From assembly GCA_963704275.1 (NCBI GenBank), contig CAVPHP010000006.1, positions 8,352-72,351 on the forward strand: a DNA stretch of 64,000 nt, in the 5' to 3' direction. The notes beneath the pieces are model-generated. The model searched no databases, was not told the origin of the DNA, and was given only the letters and a program-made list of their open reading frames with translations. Every line of letters begins with the position of its first letter. The first letter of the stretch is position 1. Source of the stretch: an uncultured Ignavibacteriaceae bacterium (GTDB lineage Bacteria > Bacteroidota > Ignavibacteria > Ignavibacteriales > Ignavibacteriaceae). This document shows, piece after piece, positions 9-48,567 of this stretch. The position numbers and the translations under genes were made by a program.

Positions 9-570
9 CTACTTAACGATCTTAGAAACTTCTTTAAACTCCGGTGTTCCGCATACTTCTAGCAGTTCAAATAAAATTGATTCGGTAGTTGTAACTTCTG
101 CCCCAAGTGTTCTCATTCTGTCTAAAGCAATCAGATAATCAATTTCTTTTCTTGATGAAACAGCATCGGCTGCAAGATTAACCTGATAATTATTTGCAAT
201 CAAATCTAAAACTGTTTGTTGAACACAAACGTGAGATTCAATTCCACGTTATCAACGATTTGAGATAATTTATTTTTATGGAGTTCATCAAATAAATTTT
301 CTGCACCGGAACAACTGAAACTCATTTTTTGATAAGCTGTATATCCTTCAAGCTCATCCAAGAATTTTTTGAGATGTTGGTCCCAATCCTTTTGGATATT
401 GCTCTGTAAAATAGATTGGAAGCTGCATAGCTTTAAAACCTTTAATAAGCTTAACAGTATTTTCTAACAACTGTTTCATAATTTCTAATAACAGGAAGTA
501 TACGTTCCTGAACATCGATAATTAAAAGTGCAGTCGTTTCTTTTTTTAAGATTATTGGATTTCGTTTCAT
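9..570 (-). pseudogene. isochorismatase-family (cysteine hydrolase fold) gene broken by about three frameshifts
   Basis: Reading the minus strand from ATG at 570 gives four segments in different frames. These are MKRNPIILKKETTALLIIDVQERILPVIRNYETVV, then ENTVKLIKGFKAMQLPIYFTEQYPKGLGPTSQKIL, then DELEGYTAYQKMSFSCSGAENLFDELHKNKLSQIV, then GIESHVCVQQTVLDLIANNYQVNLAADAVSSR (track ORF 9..203). Frame changes fall near 455-472, 345-365 and 236-257. The IIDVQ and GIESHVCV motifs are typical of isochorismatase-like hydrolases. Confidence 0.7.
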
Positions 571-623: not shown

Positions 624-719
624 GTCATTTCGAGGGAGCCTGCCTGTCGGCAGACAGGTCTTCGACTGAGAAATCTTATAAATAATAGTGGTAAGATTTC
701 TCCCTTTGGTCGAAATGAC
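624..719. repeat. REP-like palindromic intergenic element, copy 1 (GTCATT...AATGAC family)
   Basis: The termini gtcatttcga...tcgaaatgac are inverted repeats. An inner stem gagaaatct/agatttctc and a nested palindrome cctgtc-ggca-gacagg are also present. The architecture matches the copies at 6624..6694 and 33397..33465. Confidence 0.7.
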
Positions 720-733
720 TATCAAATGGCGAA

Positions 734-1571
734 CTAATATATCTCATCCATTCCATACTTACCGCAAGCGTACATCATTAAAATGGAAGTAAGATCAATA
801 AGAACTTTTTTCTGTTCATCTGCGTGAAGAACAAGATCATAAACATCAGCCATAAACTGAAAGTTACTTAAAATCTTTTTTAACTCTCGATGATTTGGCG
901 AACCATGCCAGTTTGCGACTTGAGTAACTAAGCGTTTTTTCAAATCTTCTTAAAAAATCTCTGAACGAAATTAAGTGAGTTGCGTTTGCATGTCTTGGAT
1001 GACAGATTGCAATCATATCATTAAAATAAGTATCCCAATTTTTAGCAAGTTTTTGATTACGGGAATCCATAACAAATCTTGCTTGCTCTAAAGTAAACTT
1101 TGCTTTTGTTGTAACTTTGTACTGGGGAACAATAGCATAGCCATCAAAACTTATTTCATCCTCCTCTTCATCATAATATTTCCAGCGTTTTAACAATTGA
1201 TTTGGAGTGTAAATTGTAATTACTTTATCAAGCGAGCTATCTGTAACAATAAATTTTCTTTGCTGATAGTTTACAACTGTAAGCCAGTGTTCCCAATTAT
1301 TAACACTTAAAACACAAGGATAACCTTTTTTTAATTGTTCAATTAAAACCTTAACGGCATCTTCCGGTTTTTCTCGCCTAAAATATTTCATTTTACAATT
1401 ATAATATTTAGCTGCTTTTGCTAAACCGATTTCATCAGTACCGTACCACCATGTGCTTCCGGCTTTAATTCCAATTTGATTCTCACTTTCAAATCTACCG
1501 AGCATTACAAGAGCATACTTTAATGCAAAGGGTCCGCATTGATATTTATTTGGTTGAGGGTAAAAACTCAT
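734..1571 (-). pseudogene. cytoplasmic papain-like (C39-like) cysteine peptidase domain protein with a frameshift near 941-950
   Basis: Track ORFs 864..1571 and 734..943 overlap in different frames. Joined, they read ..ISFRDFLRRFEK|KRLVTQVANWHGSPNHRELKK... The shift lies in an A6 run (gaaaaaacg on the coding strand). The N-terminal domain has a candidate catalytic Cys in YQCGPFALKYAL and a His in NNWEHWLTVV. No signal peptide is present. Confidence 0.6.
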
Positions 1572-2839: not shown

Positions 2840-3715
2840 GTGAAAAAAATTATCTCAATCTTTTTTGTGTTAAATTCTTTTGCAACGGCACAAATATATA
2901 TGATTGGTGTTGCGCCATTAAAAACAGGTAATTACTGGAAATACATTGACGTTGGTGGAATTTTTAATGATGTTCTGTGTTTTCAGGTAGCTGATAGTAC
3001 AAGAACTCTAATGGGCTATAATTTCAATATTGTTCAATCCTTTGAATCACCAAATTATATAAGATATTCGAGTTATAAAGTTTTAACAACTGATAGTATA
3101 TATATTAGTTATGCTACATATGTACCTGATAGTATTTATACATATTATAAAGCAAATTGTAAGATAGGAGATAGTTGGGTACAGCCTGTAAATGAATTTG
3201 CTATGTATACATATACTGTAATTGATACCTTTCATATTACGGCTTGGGGGAATAGTTATTTCTCTAAGCTAATTAAAATAACTGATTTTAATGTTACAGA
3301 AGTGTATCAGGTCTGGGCGGATCATTTGGGATTAATGGAAGAGCAAGGTGTTGGGCAATATCATATGGTATTAAGAGGCTGTGTTATAGATAGTATTGTT
3401 TACGGCGATACTACTACAATAGTGGATGTAGAAGAAATACCAAATCAAGAATTAACATATGATTTGGAGCAGAATTACCCAAATCCCTTCAATGCCATAA
3501 CTAACATAAAATTTTCAATAAAAAAAGCATCAAATGTTAAACTGAAAATTTATAATACAATTGGTGAAGAATTAAATAATTTGATTAATGAAAATATGAA
3601 TGCTGGTACATACAGTTACCAATTTGATGCTTCAAATTTAACTAGTGGTATTTATTTCTATAAAATAATAACTGATGATTATACGAATACAAAAAAAATG
3701 GTATTGTTGAAATAA
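2840..3715 (+). CDS. secreted protein of unknown function with T9SS C-terminal sorting domain
   Basis: GTG start. The signal peptide is MKKIISIFFVLNSFATAQ. The C-terminus is [19 protein letters not shown]...GIYFYKIITDDYTNTKKMVLLK (Por_Secre_tail-type CTD). Confidence 0.8.
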   Translation: MKKIISIFFVLNSFATAQIYMIGVAPLKTGNYWKYIDVGGIFNDVLCFQVADSTRTLMGYNFNIVQSFESPNYIRYSSYKVLTTDSIYISYATYVPDSIYTYYKANCKIGDSWVQPVNEFAMYTYTVIDTFHITAWGNSYFSKLIKITDFNVTEVYQVWADHLGLMEEQGVGQYHMVLRGCVIDSIVYGDTTTIVDVEEIPNQELTYDLEQNYPNPFNAITNIKFSIKKASNVKLKIYNTIGEELNNLINENMNAGTYSYQFDASNLTSGIYFYKIITDDYTNTKKMVLLK

Positions 3716-3769: not shown

Positions 3770-4294
3770 TTAAGCTTTTACTTTTGCAAGTGCAGGAACT
3801 TTGTGTTTTACAAATTCATAAACTCCAAACATTACTCCAACAAAGAATAAATCTCCAATTAAAGAATTTTGGAAAAATGGAATTGCTGCTGTGTAGCTTG
3901 CTAATAATCCGGCAGGAGTTTTAGGATACAAAGTTCCAAGTGCCCAAACACCAAAGTTTGTAATTACAAAGAAACTTATTGAAGCTGTAAGTGAAGTAAA
4001 TAATAATTTTTTTACACTTACTTTTTTTAGCATAAAAATTCCTAAAACAACAATTAAAGCAAAGCTTAAATAGACAATCCAGGCATAAGAATAAATTCCG
4101 ATAATCAAGTCTGTTAAAAATATTGCAGCTAACGGAATTACAAATGCGAAAGTTTTTTTGCTAAAATATGCGCCGCCAAATAAAGCCATTGCAGCTATAG
4201 GTGCAAAGTTTGGTGGATGTGGTAACAATCTTAAAAAAGCTGCTCCAAAAACCATTAGGGTTAAAACCCAAAATTTTGGTGTTAATTTTTCCAT
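3770..4294 (-). CDS. polytopic membrane protein (DUF6580-like), putative inner-membrane corrinoid transporter
   Basis: 174 aa with about 5-6 hydrophobic helices. The N-terminal motif is FLRLLPHPPNFAPIAAMALFGGAYF. It is the second gene of the operon headed by the cobalamin riboswitch and TonB receptor. The functional call rests on context only. Confidence 0.55.
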   Translation of the reverse strand: MEKLTPKFWVLTLMVFGAAFLRLLPHPPNFAPIAAMALFGGAYFSKKTFAFVIPLAAIFLTDLIIGIYSYAWIVYLSFALIVVLGIFMLKKVSVKKLLFTSLTASISFFVITNFGVWALGTLYPKTPAGLLASYTAAIPFFQNSLIGDLFFVGVMFGVYEFVKHKVPALAKVKA

Positions 4295-4390: not shown

Positions 4391-6346
4391 TTAAAGAGAT
4401 AATTTAATTCCGCCATAAAATGATAATCCCGGAGTAGCATAGCCGAATACCTCTTCATAATCTGTGTCTAAAAGATTTTCGACTCTTACATTCATCCTGA
4501 GAAAATCAAAAACATCATAATGTGCGGCAAAGTTAAGAAGCACATATCCTTTAAGTTCCGTTCTTTCAAATGTTGAAAAATCAATATCATCACGAGTCCC
4601 AACCCAGATAACTTCAGCATTAAAATTGGTCTTTGCAGAAAAAGAATAACTAGTAAAAAAACCTAGTTTACTTTCCGGTCGGCGCAATAACTTTGTATCA
4701 AAGTCTGATGAATTTGGACTAACATCTCTCGCGTCTGTAAAAGTATAATTAACTTTTATTTCTAAATCATCAATCGGCTTAGTCTGAAAATAAAATTCTA
4801 AACCCTTTGTTACAGCCTGTTTAATATTAATTGTTTTGAATGTTTGATAATCAAAACCAAACATATCGCTAAACTTATTGTAGAAAAAAGTAGTTCCAAA
4901 AGTCAAATTTTGTTTAAAGAAAAATTGCTCGATACCAAAATCCCAACCAAAACTTTCTTCGGGATTTAGATTTTCATTTCCATAAGCAGGATCATATAAA
5001 TAATATAATGATGGTGCTTTAAATCCTGTTCCAATTGTTGCTTTGATTTTTGTTCCTGTTTCCCAAAGCATATAAGCAGGTGCAATTCTGTAAGTAAATT
5101 GTGAACCAAATTTACTGTGTTCATCTAATCTTAAACCGGCTGCAATAAAAAAACCTTCCTCAAATTTTATTTGATCCTGTAAAAAGGCACTAATTGTATT
5201 AGCATCTTTATTAGGAATAACACTTGCATAATCAGGCAATAGAATATAGTTGAAGGAATAATATTCAGAAGATGATTCTTCTTTCTCAAATTCAATTCCA
5301 GCGGTTAACAAATTTCCTTTGCTAAGTTGAAAATCATTTTGCCAATCAATTTTATATCTTCTTCCATCATATAAAGCATTTGAATAATAGGCGCTTGCAG
5401 ATGAAGTATCAAATGAATTTTTTCTAACATTTCTTAAAAACGTTAAGCCAAGTTTCTGATTCCAATTACCATTTAATAACTTAATTTTTCCTTCCCCTCG
5501 AATTGAAAACTCTTCTTGTTTAGTTAGATAGGTCGGATCGTCACCAAACATTCCACCAAACTGATCATTGTCTGATTCTGATTTTAAAAATCTTGTATTC
5601 AAATTTATTTCTGCATTATCACTTAAATCATAACCTAAAACAGAAGTAAGATTATTAAAAGTATATCCATCTTTTTCTGTGTTGCCGTACTTTTCTGATG
5701 CCGCAGAAAAACCATCGCTGCCTGTTCTACTGAATGCAAGTGAATAATTTAATTTCTTAATTGATCCGTTTAATCCAATCATTCCTTTATAAGTATTGTA
5801 AGTACCGCCTTCTGTAAGTAAAGAAAATTTTGGCGAACCATTTCCTTTTTTTGTAATGATGTTAATAACTCCGGCAAGTGCATCAGAGCCATAAAGTGTA
5901 GATTGCGGACCTCGTAAAACTTCTATCCGTTCAATGTTATCAACAGGCAATGCGGAAAAATCGTAAACACCCGATGGATCGTTTGTAAGATTAACTTCAA
6001 CGCCATCAATCAAAACTAAAGTGTGTGATGAGTTTGAACCGCGAATATAAATATTTGATAAAGTTCCGTTGCCGCCTTGTCTTGTAAAGCTGATTCCTGT
6101 TTCATTTCTCAAAACATCAAATACGTTGTTGGAGTTACTGTTTGATAATTGTTTAGCATCTATTACAGAAATTGAACTGGCAAGCTGCAAAGTATTAGCA
6201 TTAGTTTTTGTTGCAGAAACTACCACTTCACTAAGTTTGTAATATCCTGCCGTATCAGTTTTTTGGATAATAGATTCCTGAGGAACGGTTTGATGAAAAG
6301 TGAAAAGAAAAATAAAAAGAGTAAAAAGAAATTTTGTTTTGTACAT
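4391..6346 (-). CDS. btuB: TonB-dependent outer-membrane receptor, BtuB-like (cobalamin/corrinoid uptake)
   Basis: 651 aa with a signal peptide and a TonB-box-like LSEVVVSATKT. The plug motifs are IERIEVLRGPQSTLYGSDALAGVINIITK. The C-terminal beta-barrel ends GLSFYGGIKLSL. A cobalamin riboswitch lies directly upstream on the same strand. Confidence 0.85.
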   Translation of the reverse strand: MYKTKFLFTLFIFLFTFHQTVPQESIIQKTDTAGYYKLSEVVVSATKTNANTLQLASSISVIDAKQLSNSNSNNVFDVLRNETGISFTRQGGNGTLSNIYIRGSNSSHTLVLIDGVEVNLTNDPSGVYDFSALPVDNIERIEVLRGPQSTLYGSDALAGVINIITKKGNGSPKFSLLTEGGTYNTYKGMIGLNGSIKKLNYSLAFSRTGSDGFSAASEKYGNTEKDGYTFNNLTSVLGYDLSDNAEINLNTRFLKSESDNDQFGGMFGDDPTYLTKQEEFSIRGEGKIKLLNGNWNQKLGLTFLRNVRKNSFDTSSASAYYSNALYDGRRYKIDWQNDFQLSKGNLLTAGIEFEKEESSSEYYSFNYILLPDYASVIPNKDANTISAFLQDQIKFEEGFFIAAGLRLDEHSKFGSQFTYRIAPAYMLWETGTKIKATIGTGFKAPSLYYLYDPAYGNENLNPEESFGWDFGIEQFFFKQNLTFGTTFFYNKFSDMFGFDYQTFKTINIKQAVTKGLEFYFQTKPIDDLEIKVNYTFTDARDVSPNSSDFDTKLLRRPESKLGFFTSYSFSAKTNFNAEVIWVGTRDDIDFSTFERTELKGYVLLNFAAHYDVFDFLRMNVRVENLLDTDYEEVFGYATPGLSFYGGIKLSL

Positions 6347-6777
6347 TGAAGTTACTCCATATAAAAATGTTAAAAGTAACTTCGCGGATTAAAAAGTTTA
6401 GATAAAACGAATGGGTGTTTTGTGAGACCATCGTTAACCTTACCTTTCTCGCGAAGGTTGATTAATTACTATCTACGGCAGGTCTCCTGGCTTTTAACAA
6501 AATGCTCAATGTTAAGTATTAAATGTTCAATGAAATTCATTGAGCATTTAAGATTGAAAATTTAACATTGCAACAAAGTTGCTATTCACAGTTGCGCGAC
6601 AGCGACGGATTTTAATTCTGTTTGTCATTGCGAACGAAGTGAAGCAATCTATAAATATAACAGATTGCTTCGTTCCTTTAGAACTCGCAATGACTACTTA
6701 GAAAATAGCACCGTACTTCCCTATAGTTTCCCATTATTCCGATTAAATCAGAATTGGGACACCGTAAATTTTGTTCA
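6347..6777 (-). promoter_or_regulatory. cobalamin (B12) riboswitch plus expression platform, with a REP-like insertion in the aptamer
   Basis: The minus-strand RNA has TACGG..AATGGGAAACTATAGGGAAGTACGGTGC[insert]TAAAATCCGTCGCTGTCGCGCAACTGTGAATAGC. It also has a B12 box AAGCCAGGAGACCTGCCGTA (plus 6474..6493), with CCGTA closing P1 against TACGG (plus 6772..6776). In the platform, gaagttact (plus 6375..6383) pairs perfectly with agtaacttc abutting the ATG (plus 6348..6356). Its cgcgaag part can pair alternatively with cttcgcg (plus 6450..6456). Confidence 0.8.
6624..6694. repeat. REP-like palindromic element, copy 2, located inside the riboswitch aptamer
   Basis: The sequence is gtcattgcgaacgaagtgaagcaatct-ataaatataac-agattgcttcgttcctttagaactcgcaatgac. 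The outer stem is gtcattgcga/tcgcaatgac and the inner stem is gaagcaatct/agattgcttc. Confidence 0.75.
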
Positions 6778-7058
6778 AAGAACTGATTCAAAAATATGCC
6801 TCTTTTAACTAACGTCAAAGCATTTCATAATTTTGTTTGTAGTTTGATCCTGTTTTTTAGACAAAAGATCGATAATTTAAACAAGAAATAATTTTTATTA
6901 AGATCAGAGATTGCCAGATCGATAAAAAAAACACTCATTTTATTTCTTAAAATAACATTATGCTTTTTTGATTTTATGAATTGGAGATTTTATTTAAGTG
7001 ATTTATAGATTTTAAAATAATTAATTTATCTTTTTACAAATTAAAGATAGGGAACAAG

Positions 7059-11899: not shown

Positions 11900-12988
11900 T
11901 TGAAGATTGCAGAAGCAGATATTTCTGAAAAAACTTCTTTTACTAAGATTGTTGAGTTAATTAATCAATCTAAACAAAGAGCTTTTACTTCTGTAAATAA
12001 AGAACTGATAAATCTGTATTGGAACATTGGCGAGTATATTTCTAAAAAAACTGAATCGGATGGTTGGGGGAAAAGTACGGTTGAGAAGTTGTCTAAATTT
12101 ATCCAAAAAGAAATGATTGGCTCGCGTGGTTTTTCTAATCAGAATTTATGGAGAATGAAGCAGTTTTATGAGGTTTATTCAGAATTCCCAAAACTCTCAA
12201 CAGTGTTGAGAGAATTGACCTGGTCGAATAATCTTCATATTCTTACAAAAACGAAGACTATTAAGGAAAAAGAGTTCTACATTAATCTTGCAATTAACGA
12301 AAAATATTCTGCACGCGAACTTGAGCGGCAAATAAATTCTGGGGTTTTTGAGCGGTTTTTACTTTCCAATCAAAAACTGTCAACACTGATGACAGAATCA
12401 CAAAACCAAACTGATGATTCAAAACTCTCACCACTGGTGAGAGAATTACAAAATGCTCAATTACAGCAAATAAACGAGATTTTTAAGGATAAGTATATAT
12501 TTGAGTTTTTAGATTTACCCAAAGATTTTAGCGAGAAAGATTTAAGAAAATCACTTGTAAAAAATCTTAGAGAATTTATTCTGGAATTGGGAAAAGGTTT
12601 TACTTTTGTTGGAGAGGAATATCGATTACAAGTTAGTACTAAAGATTTTTTTGTTGATTTACTTTTTTATCATCGCGGGTTACAATGTTTGGTTGCTATA
12701 GATTTAAAGATTGATGATTTTAGTCCGGAGTATCTTGGCAAAATGAATTTTTATCTTGAAGCACTTGATAAAACACAAAGGTTAGATAACGAAAATCCGA
12801 GTGTTGGATTAATCTTATGTAAAACTAAAGATGATGAAATTGTTAGGTATGCGCTTAACAGAAGTTTATCGCCGACTAAAATTGCAGAGTATGAAACTCA
12901 GTTGATTGATAAAAATATCTTAAAGAAAAAATTGCACGAACTTGGTGAGTATTATTTGTCTGCAGAAAAAATTAAATCCGCTAATTAA
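11900..12988 (+). CDS. YhcG/DUF1016-family PD-(D/E)XK nuclease domain protein inserted between sdhA and sdhB
   Basis: 362 aa. The N-terminal region [59 protein letters not shown] is typical of the DUF1016 N-domain. The C-terminal nuclease core is [25 protein letters not shown] (D...D-x-K). The TTG start lies 10 nt after the AGGAG in the left repeat. Confidence 0.8.
12194..12443. repeat. three codon-phased palindromic units inside the nuclease gene
   Basis: 12194..12212 is ctctcaaca-g-tgttgagag (perfect 9+9). 12377..12395 is ctgtcaaca-c-tgatgacag (8/9). 12425..12443 is ctctcacca-c-tggtgagag (perfect 9+9). Each unit is embedded in caaaaCTnTCAnCAnTGnTGAnAGaat. All start in codon phase 0 and encode LSTVLRE / LSTLMTE / LSPLVRE. 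Confidence 0.85.
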
Positions 12989-16749: not shown

Positions 16750-16823
16750 GGCGGGGTAGCTCAGTAGGTTAGAGCAGTGGAATCATAATCCACGTGTCGG
16801 GGGTTCGAATCCCTCCCCCGCTA
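16750..16823 (+). tRNA. tRNA with CAT anticodon (elongator Met or lysidine-modified Ile2)
   Basis: Manual cloverleaf: ggcgggg ta gctc agtaggtta gagc a gtgga atCATaa tccac gtgtc ggggg ttcgaat ccctc ccccgct a. Length 74 nt, with a G1-U72 wobble. It is not initiator-like, as the anticodon stem lacks the GGG/CCC run. Confidence 0.85.
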
Positions 16824-33396: not shown

Positions 33397-33465
33397 GTCA
33401 TTCCCATGAAGGTGGGGATCTACTTTGTTATAGATTTTATGGATTCCCGTTTTCACGGGAATGAC
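33397..33465. repeat. REP-like palindromic element, copy 3
   Basis: gtcattcccatgaaggtggggatc...ggattcccgttttcacgggaatgac. It is an imperfect inverted repeat with the same GTCATT/AATGAC termini, in the greA-ribD spacer. Confidence 0.7.
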
Positions 33466-47942: not shown

Positions 47943-48026
47943 GGGCGGACGCCGGAGTTGGAGAGCCGGGGCGGACTGTAAATCCGTTGGCATGCGCCTT
48001 TGGGGGTTCGAATCCCTCGCCGCCCA
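47943..48026 (+). tRNA. tRNA-Tyr (GTA), long variable arm
   Basis: gggcgga cg ccgg agttggagag ccgg g gcgga ctGTAaa tccgt tggcatgcgccttt ggggg ttcgaat ccctc gccgccc a. Length 84 nt, with one A7-G66 mismatch in my fold. Confidence 0.85.
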
Positions 48027-48093
48027 CATAAAATAGTATTTATTAAGAGTTTCTAATTAGAAACTTTTTTGTTCTTTGTGAGTTTTGAAAATT

Positions 48094-48170
<77 letters not shown>

Positions 48171-48214
48171 AATGCACTGAATAGTTATTGGTTTTTATGT
48201 GTTATCACAGCTCC

Positions 48215-48287
48215 GCTGACGTAGCTCAGTTGGTAGAGCACATCCTTGGTAAGGATGAGGTCACCGGTTCAATCCCGGTCGTCAGCT
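48215..48287 (+). tRNA. tRNA-Thr (GGT)
   Basis: gctgacg ta gctc agttggta gagc a catcc ttGGTaa ggatg aggtc accgg ttcaatc ccggt cgtcagc t. Length 73 nt. Confidence 0.9.
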
Positions 48288-48324
48288 CAACAGAAAAGGT
48301 TTGAATAGTTTTAAGGAATAGGAA

Positions 48325-48489
48325 ATGGCAAAAAGCAATATAAGACAAATAATCGTTTTGGAAAGCACTGCTGGCACTGGTTATAGATATTCTACAACAA
48401 AGAATAAAAGAACACATCCAGCACGAGTTGAGTACAAAAAGTACGATCCTGTCGCTAGAAAACACGTTATTTTTAAAGAAACCAAATAA
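48325..48489 (+). CDS. rpmG: 50S ribosomal protein L33 (54 aa, below the ORF-track cutoff)
   Basis: Translation is [54 protein letters not shown]. An aggaa RBS-like sequence lies upstream. Confidence 0.9.
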
Positions 48490-48494
48490 TTGAT

Positions 48495-48567
48495 ACGTCA
48501 GTGGCTCAATTGGTAGAGCAGCGGTCTCCAAAACCGCAGGTTGGGGGTTCGAGTCCCTCCTGACGTG
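48495..48567 (+). tRNA. tRNA-Trp (CCA)
   Basis: acgtcag tg gctc aattggta gagc a gcggt ctCCAaa accgc aggtt ggggg ttcgagt ccctc ctgacgt g. Length 73 nt. Confidence 0.9.

Follow-up and report, generated by a model that had tools for sequence, protein, structure and literature searches.

The 64-kb stretch of DNA analysed here (the window) comes from an uncultured Ignavibacteriaceae bacterium and contains one riboswitch, a cobalamin riboswitch on the minus strand upstream of a gene for a B12 transport-type, btuB-like receptor with Plug and barrel domains (Table 1). The open reading frame (ORF) of this gene is intact; JGI gives many of its homologs the name 'vitamin B12 transporter', and the nearest ones are labelled Ignavibacteriaceae, Ignavibacterium or Ignavibacteriales. 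One loop of the riboswitch, L4, is split by a 95-nt insert that carries a palindromic repeat.

The split L4 loop of the btuB riboswitch

The riboswitch itself is an ordinary member of RF00174. The match covers the whole covariance model (positions 1-189 of 189) and scores 44.6 bits (E = 6e-8), above the gathering score of 31.5 bits. The aptamer core is uninterrupted in the model alignment, with the GGGAA junction, the P4 stem ACGG/CCGU, L5 and the B12 box AGCCAGGAGACCUGCC, in agreement with the initial annotation, which had recognized a cobalamin riboswitch with a clear B12 box. The E. coli btuB string used for comparison in that annotation is exact: it matches 5237 of 5426 complete E. coli genomes, and the three records listed annotate it as 'riboswitch'.

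Table 1. Features of the btuB leader and related palindromic elements in the window
Feature	Position	Strand	Basis
'Type 1b' element (GTCATTTCGA...GAGAAATCT...AGATTTCTC...TCGAAATGAC)	624..719	+	Intergenic spacer
btuB-like TonB-dependent receptor, 651 aa, regulated gene	4391..6346	-	ORF; homologs with Plug and TonB_dep_Rec domains
Sequestering hairpin and translation start	6344..6386	-	CGCGAAGUUACU 6375-6386, GGAG 6355-6358, AGUAACUUC 6348-6356, AUG 6344-6346
P13/L13 hairpin CCUU-CGCGAGA-AAGG	6443..6457	-	Sequence; kept in orthologs
Cobalamin riboswitch aptamer including all inserts	6460..6781	-	RF00174, 44.6 bits
B12 box AGCCAGGAGACCUGCC	6477..6492	-	Sequence and model alignment
P6 extension, AT-rich imperfect palindrome	6493..6590	-	34-nt arms, 79% complementary; usual variable region of the family
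L5 loop UCGCG, proposed kissing partner of L13	6595..6599	-	Model alignment; predicted interaction
P4 stem (6711-6714 / 6605-6608) closing the split L4 T-loop	6605..6714	-	Covariance-model alignment
95-nt insert (closing helix, spacer, palindromic element) at T-loop positions 3/4	6613..6707	-	Covariance-model alignment
Closing helix of the insert, UUCU 6700-6703 with AGAA 6616-6619	6616..6703	-	Constrained fold; equivalent helix covaries in orthologs
71-nt GTCAT...ATGAC palindromic element, 'type 1'	6624..6694	-	Arm search, folding; nhmmer homologs in other genomes
'Type 3' element (GTCATTCCC..GGGGATC ... GATTCCC..GGGAATGAC), two sub-hairpins	33397..33465	.	Termini scan and hidden Markov model

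Like the class-I cobalamin (adenosylcobalamin, AdoCbl) riboswitches (E. coli btuB; 4GMA, 4GXY), the window's riboswitch combines a full-length model match with the GGGAA junction, a P4 bearing the UGNAANN T-loop sequence, L5, a long P6 extension, the B12 box, complementarity between L5 and L13, a hairpin that sequesters the start site and a btuB-type gene downstream. It differs from them in L4 and in the P6 extension. L4 has 7 nt and is closed both in E. coli (UGCGAAU) and in Rfam's consensus, but is split after its third nucleotide in the window; the P6 extension here is AT-rich, and mosaic among close relatives. To our knowledge, published consensus diagrams of cobalamin riboswitches show no insert at the L4 position.

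The covariance model places the insert between model positions 58 and 59, in the hairpin loop ccGGUGc|aAauCCgg, and the split loop reads U6710 G6709 C6708, insert, A6612 A6611 A6610 U6609. The location initially proposed, within the conserved GGUG..AA..CC hairpin, therefore stands, and the insert does not belong to the known variable region of the family, the P6 extension; the proposed boundaries (6611-6707) have to be narrowed to those of Table 1. All five T-loop nucleotides of the P4 hairpin are present (U6710, G6709, C6708, A6612 and A6611), on the two sides of the inserted helix. L4 of cobalamin riboswitches is a T-loop, and nucleotide 3 of a T-loop is unstacked (PMC6158498, PMC7367189). 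In the window the motif would still form, from an internal loop of 3 + 4 nt.

The self-complementary element reported at 6624..6694 has perfect 10-nt outer arms (GTCATTGCGA / TCGCAATGAC) and a significant fold. Within its 10-bp outer stem lie two hairpins, a small one on the 5' side (GUUCuaaagGAAC) and a central one (GAAGCAAUCU / AGAUUGCUUC); terminal inverted repeats are present in other copies as well. The 121-nt stretch around it folds into a branched hairpin with a minimum free energy (MFE) of -41.8 kcal/mol, compared with -21.7 +/- 3.2 for shuffled sequences (z = -6.2; none of 200 shuffles as good). When the whole 322-nt aptamer is folded, the element forms a domain of its own in both the MFE and the centroid structure, without pairing to core segments. 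The insert is centred on this palindrome, as the initial annotation had it. The palindrome does not, however, adjoin the T-loop: a closing helix that starts after T-loop nucleotide 3 lies in between.

A variable helix at one point of orthologous leaders

L4 was extracted from 42 leaders of Ignavibacteriaceae and related Ignavibacteriales assemblies; the orthologous btuB loci (L numbers below) were taken from species-representative genomes, metagenomes and contigs encoding particular homologs. RF00174 lies upstream of btuB in all 16 loci scanned with Rfam (44-72 bits, 163-316 nt), and any extra P4 sequence falls between model positions 58 and 59 in each of the nine ortholog alignments printed. 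An insert occupies the L4 site in 40 of the 42 leaders, and only L016 and L036 have the canonical UGAAAUU loop. This comparison of orthologous leaders, suggested with the initial annotation, speaks against a single landing of a mobile hairpin in the window's loop: L4 is a variable site throughout the lineage.

Twelve leaders carry a short hairpin of 13-17 nt (for example, UGA-UUCC-guua-GGAA-AAUU). The other 28 have long inserts of 75-114 nt in which GTCAT...ATGAC palindromes form the core; these palindromes are of three or more unrelated kinds. The type 1 element, GTCATT[A/G]CGA ... GAAG[C/T]AATCT ... AGATTGCTTC ... TCGCAATGAC, is found in 17 leaders including the window, and among them are independent assemblies whose BtuB is 99% and 90% identical to that of the window. 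The type 2 element (GTCATCCTGAAC...GGAATGAC), unrelated to type 1, is found in nine leaders; in L048, a complete Ignavibacteriales genome, it sits in L4 in the reverse orientation and is identical at 51 of 53 positions to the reverse complement of the L003 copy. The remaining two leaders hold a GTCAYCCTGAGCTTGTCGAAGG-type element (L005) and a degenerate insert (L012).

The Rfam score drops with insert length, from 71.7 bits with no insert to 63-70 bits with a short hairpin and 44-61 bits with a long insert. The effect of removing the insert on this score was judged from natural variants. L017, which shares the window's P6 extension but has a 15-nt L4 hairpin, can be taken as the nearest natural stand-in for a window leader freed of its insert; its riboswitch is still detected, with a better score (62.9 bits versus 44.6).

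Constrained folds show a helix in every insert-bearing leader that starts right after loop nucleotide 3 and ends right before nucleotide 4. The closing helix was analysed in an alignment of 22 distinct sequences, cut down to P4, the nucleotides of the loop and five nucleotides from either end of the insert. Both outermost pairs of the helix are formed in all 22, with GC (11) or UA (11) at pair 1 and AU (12), GC (4), UA (4), CG (1) or UG (1) at pair 2. Paired cells make up 86.9% of the helix; shifting the 3' partner by 1-3 columns lowers this to 35-52%, and none of 500 shuffles reached the observed covariation score. In the same sequences the U, the G and the second A of the T-loop do not vary, and at least 90% have the first A. 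The closing helix of the window (UUCU/AGAA) is shorter and less regular than most.

The rest of the riboswitch is conserved irrespective of the insert. The T-loop, the aptamer core, the B12 box and the L13 and sequestering hairpins are essentially unchanged in insert-bearing leaders whose BtuB proteins are 64-99% identical to that of the window; a 15-nt core of the B12 box, GCCAGGAGACCTGCC, is invariant across all aligned orthologs, and the sequence downstream of the aptamer is near-identical in all leaders, whatever their L4 state. This expression platform includes the P13/L13 hairpin, a second hairpin (ACGAUGG...CCAUUCGU) and the start segment GGAGUAACUUCAAUG at 6344-6358. The helix between GAAGUUACU (6375-6383) and AGUAACUUC appears in both the MFE and the centroid folds and is kept in nearly all orthologs, as is an alternative pairing of CUUCGCG (6450-6456) with CGCGAAG (6380-6386). 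Both pairings had been pointed out in the initial annotation; they are mutually exclusive because GAAG is common to both. AGUAACUUC takes in the final two bases of the Shine-Dalgarno sequence (GGAG) and ends 1 nt short of the AUG.

These pairings agree with a translational OFF switch. With B12 bound, L5 would kiss L13 (CGCGA, 6449-6453) and lock the P13 hairpin; CGCGAAGUUACU would then be free to pair with AGUAACUUC, and translation would be blocked. Without B12, CUUCGCG would pair with CGCGAAG and the start site would be freed. An L5-L13 kissing pair is usual in the cobalamin riboswitch family. In the leaders studied here the two complementary loops are both conserved, with too little variation for a covariation test.

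Extra sequence is present in the platform of L016 and of L005. In L016 the loop of the CCUU...AGG hairpin (P13/L13) has an extra 18 nt (TAACCAATTGGTATAAAG), and the Shine-Dalgarno/start segment is unlike that of all other leaders. In L005 the loop of the hairpin that sequesters the start site holds an additional palindrome, about 30 nt long (TTAAGCTGAAGACAAATAAGTCTTAAGCTA), between the platform segments CGCGAAGTTACTTT and GGAGTAACTTC; this is another hairpin tip of the same leader with an insert.

A gene for a DUF6580 (PF20221) membrane protein (window 3770-4294, minus strand) follows btuB in nearly all gene-called loci, L019-L048. The DUF6580 protein is probably co-regulated by the riboswitch, and is therefore a candidate inner-membrane component of B12 uptake.

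Palindromic elements and the mosaic leader

Besides the outer stem and the central hairpin (GAAGCAAUCU/AGAUUGCUUC), type 1 elements have one or two further hairpins, small and variable (UCCCGAuuuaUCGGGA, GUCCCgaaGGGAC, GUUCuaaagGAAC, CCCCGAugaaUCGGGG), that differ in sequence but keep their pairing. The initial annotation counted two further members of the family in the window. Two further GTCAT...ATGAC palindromes do exist, types 1b and 3 of Table 1, but each is of a different sub-family. Searching the window for close copies by simple words and patterns returns the type 1b element alone, both arms of which have changed together (GTCATTTCGA/TCGAAATGAC and GAGAAATCT/AGATTTCTC). It is not detected by a hidden Markov model (HMM) of the L4-type element built without it; it was thus rejected as a close copy and is a sub-family relative only. 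Type 3 copies (GTCATTCCC...GGGAATGAC) are found in the window, in L041 (2017-2085) and in L004 (3560-3628), and an HMM built only from the latter two detects the window copy at E = 5e-12. A loose scan of the window for the termini alone gives three matches where 1.3 are expected by chance; the case for a family is therefore built not on number but on the architecture that the elements have in common and on homologs in other genomes.

Further GTCAT...ATGAC elements occur at L003:9588-9660, L008:8602-8680, L009:9622-9719, L013:9742-9805 and L014:9157-9197. According to tblastn of the flanking ORFs, all five spacers are orthologous to the one that holds the window's type 1b element, so that they add one extra site; a dispersal of type 1 copies over many sites in other loci was rejected for this reason. 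Across the loci examined, GTCAT...ATGAC copies occupy about five distinct sites; the 64-kb window holds three such palindromes, of three sub-families. The syntenic spacer, which lies between orthologs of window ORFs 864-1571(-) and 354-515(-), contains such an element in every genome examined. Its sub-types differ and their arms change jointly (GCGA/TCGC to TCGA/TCGA), a pattern that may reflect either selection for a hairpin or replacement by other copies.

The clearest case of mobility is in L004 (JBGAWM010000002; BtuB 75% identical), whose riboswitch carries a type 3 element in the apical loop of P2 in addition to a type 1 element in L4. The P2 loop reads GUUCCAG-[about 130 nt]-CAAUGGAA (region L004:3531-3660, core 3560-3628). 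Because of this insertion the Rfam match in L004 starts too late, at 3625; the aptamer's real 5' end lies near 3503. The P2 copy and the copy in an L041 spacer can be aligned for about 118 nt, starting at GTCTCAAAAG and ending at CTTTTGA-ACA; the flanks on both sides are unrelated, and the L041 copy is missing in the window and in five other loci at the orthologous spacer. This shows directly that at least type 3 elements of the superfamily are mobile, and that one of them has also inserted at a loop tip of the riboswitch aptamer. The window's own type 1 element shares only its core with the copies at another site, whose flanks are unrelated to the L4 flanks.

These elements resemble REP/BIME, ERIC, Correia and miniature inverted-repeat transposable elements (MITEs) in being imperfect palindromes of 50-120 nt that are multi-copy and mostly intergenic. 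Like REP/BIME-type repeats, they fall into sub-families with co-changing arms and show presence/absence polymorphism between related genomes. REP heads are GTAG-type, whereas the elements described here have GTCAT...ATGAC termini with internal sub-hairpins; 'REP-like', the term used in the initial annotation, is thus a description of shape and not a family assignment. In contrast to known dispersed repeats, they match no Rfam family, permissive scans of the two other window copies giving nothing or chance hairpin matches far below threshold, and inspection reveals no direct repeat of 3 nt or longer (a target-site duplication) flanking 6624-6694, 624-719 or 33397-33465. A self-cleaving ribozyme of the hammerhead kind, suggested by the branched shape, was rejected, since neither strand contains a CUGANGA or GAAA core. 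Literature searches with the terminal sequences returned them only as unrelated primers and no paper describing the elements, and no publications on palindromic elements or MITEs within riboswitch aptamers were found.

Leader and btuB histories disagree. On a neighbour-joining BtuB tree the L4 states are interleaved, and one tight clade contains short-hairpin, type 1, type 2 and 'other' leaders. The window and L022 are 68% identical at 4-fold sites of btuB but 96% in the L4 insert, 98% in the P6 extension and 93% in the upstream 200 nt; conversely, the window and L001 are 89% identical at 4-fold sites but 61%, 51% and 49% in the same three segments, while the expression platform stays about 95% identical. 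Because the two histories disagree, leader segments have evidently been exchanged between lineages. The P6 extension is also a mosaic: close orthologs have AT-rich palindromes of at least four unrelated kinds there (AGCAACTTTGTTGCAATGTTAAATTTTCAATC..., CAATTTACAATGTAAAATGTATAATGTACAAT..., CAATTAACAATTAAAAGTTAACAATGAACAAT..., TTTGCAGACTGCTAATTTTTGCAGACTG...), which combine freely with different L4 insert types. Separate origins are required at a minimum for type 1, type 2 (in two orientations), the L005 element and the P2-loop element of L004. The closing helix seems to be independent of the element at its tip, because the outermost closing pairs GAU/AUC or UGU/ACA are common to leaders with different tip elements and because the flanks of type 1 copies elsewhere are unrelated.

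Other repeats and RNA genes of the window include another small palindrome (CAAAACTCTCAACAGTGTTGAGAGAATT), present in three copies (79-89% identity) within 260 nt at 12189-12447, a cluster of three tRNA genes at 48094-48567 and a single tRNA gene at 16750-16823. A repeat, D3, hints at a further tRNA-like 3' end at about 48002-48028, which is not reported by Rfam at the gathering threshold.

A probably tolerated insertion and its alternatives

These observations suggest that the window most probably encodes a working class-I cobalamin riboswitch of the OFF type, which acts on the translation of a btuB-type outer-membrane receptor for B12 and tolerates the insert in L4; its ligand is probably adenosylcobalamin. 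In such an RNA the L4 T-loop helps to hold the ligand-binding four-way junction together. In the window it is split between its nucleotides 3 and 4 by an extra helix that would point away from the core, with the 71-nt GTCAT...ATGAC repeat of a dispersed family at the far end. Nucleotide 3 of the T-loop would lie at the apex of the turn with its backbone outward, so that a helix starting there would leave the 1-5 pair and the intercalation gap intact, and the insert would fold by itself without competing with the core. T-loops outside hairpins (RNase P, rRNA, T-box stem I, cobalamin L2B, J1/3) are five-nucleotide motifs in internal loops or bulges, and in motifs of this kind nucleotide 3 is unstacked and solvent-facing (PMC6158498, PMC7367189). 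In contrast to these known T-loops, the five nucleotides here would come from both strands of the internal loop (3 + 2).

Several points weigh against this interpretation. Thermodynamic folding of the full aptamer does not recover P4 and so gives the split loop no positive support. Motifs stabilised by tertiary contacts are usually missed in such folds. The closing helix of the window is the weakest of the set, with 4 bp and a small flanking internal loop. The sequences in the covariation analysis are related and may represent five independent helix types, not 22 events. The exchange of leader segments likewise means that independent insertions were fewer than the scatter of insert types over the BtuB tree would suggest, and the identity of inserts between lineages was rejected as a sign of purifying selection, since the incongruence between leaders and 4-fold sites indicates recombination. 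Finally, function is predicted from conservation only; ligand binding, the kissing loop, the direction of regulation and the retention of the T-loop fold are predictions.

A more far-reaching proposal is that apical loops are recurrent landing pads for the GTCAT...ATGAC superfamily, with integration directed by single-stranded DNA hairpins, as with hairpin-recognising Y1 transposases, and that the 3/4 site of L4 accepts helices of any length without loss of sensing. On this view L4 would have been hit by at least three families and in both orientations, P2 once and the sequestering hairpin loop perhaps as well, and selection would not by itself account for the pattern. The proposal as a whole is doubtful. 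Pairing of the flanks is significant only for two type 3 copies, whose outer arms belong to the element. The flanks of the window's dispersed copies do not pair, and structure-directed integration at hairpin tips was rejected on this ground. A selection filter is the simpler explanation: within an aptamer, only insertions at loop tips survive.

It is also conceivable, but unlikely, that no transposition into L4 took place, and that a lineage-specific peripheral helix grew in place, its versions spreading by homologous recombination of leader segments and its likeness to the palindromes being secondary (for example, through gene conversion). The incongruent histories of leaders and coding sequences fit such a scenario, as does the lack of a visible target-site duplication beside the window's copies, and the closing pairs GAU/AUC and UGU/ACA shared across different tips imply that the helix base predates the tip or is independent of it. 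However, recombination explains the spread of unrelated palindromes and not their first arrival in the same loop. A related unit of about 118 nt is mobile, being found both in the P2 loop of L004 and in the unrelated spacer of L041, where it is polymorphic for presence and absence, and type 2 occurs in L4 in both orientations.

A function of the extension itself, kept by selection, is improbable. It could be a binding site for a protein or small RNA, a module for folding or transcription pausing, or a stabiliser of an L4-P6 contact. A helix is present at the site in 40 of 42 leaders, including the deep branches L015 and L042 (BtuB 51% identical), it always starts right at the T-loop and covaries, and elements of the same families persist at the syntenic intergenic site with compensatory changes in their arms. 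The distal content is nevertheless unconstrained, with at least five unrelated sequences of 13 to 114 nt in both orientations; L016 and L036 lack an insert yet have the same platform; and only the closing pairs are constrained, which is what simple steric tolerance requires.

Of the two outcomes that the initial annotation had considered, the comparative evidence favours a tolerated helical extension, and the conserved core and platform argue against an inactivated riboswitch. A crippled riboswitch, in which a broken L4 T-loop has weakened or abolished ligand binding and btuB is constitutive or otherwise regulated, is very improbable: although the window scores among the lowest of the orthologs (44.6 bits versus 63-72 with no insert or a short one) and its short closing helix is flanked by unpaired nucleotides, the deficit is the covariance model's charge for a long insert and not damage to the core, the T-loop nucleotides are kept beside the insert, and a dead aptamer should decay, but the core, B12 box, L5, L13 and sequestering hairpin are near-invariant in the 28 long-insert leaders.

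A tolerated insertion has a possible counterpart in the palindromic elements of Rickettsia, which Ogata et al. (Science, 2000) are said to have reported within functional genes, including RNA genes. In both cases a selfish palindrome lies within a conserved functional product, from whose surface it projects as an extra hairpin, and is tolerated. The Ignavibacteriales case differs in phylum and in an unrelated element, the host is a riboswitch aptamer, and several families have occupied one site across a clade.

Nothing established is overturned by these observations. What is new is a clade-wide and highly variable helix in L4 between T-loop nucleotides 3 and 4, a leader that is a recombining mosaic, and a superfamily of palindromic repeats that has colonised the L4 helix, P2 and probably other hairpins at their tips. 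The findings may be of use to RNA structural biologists, engineers and students of small mobile repeats. The splitting of L4 by an unrelated helix of 13-114 nt across the clade amounts to a natural experiment on the insertion tolerance of a tertiary-contact loop, and it predicts that the two strands of an internal loop can together make a T-loop, with a 3|4 split. In engineered B12 switches or cryo-EM constructs, the 3/4 point of L4 may offer a safe place to graft scaffolds, tags or a second aptamer. The L4 inserts cost about 10-25 bits of covariance-model score, and riboswitches with a weaker core would drop below threshold and be missed. For the bacteria themselves, small palindromic repeats appear to invade functional non-coding RNAs and to survive only at helix tips, and their riboswitch leaders are mosaics in which recombination is faster than in the genes under their control.

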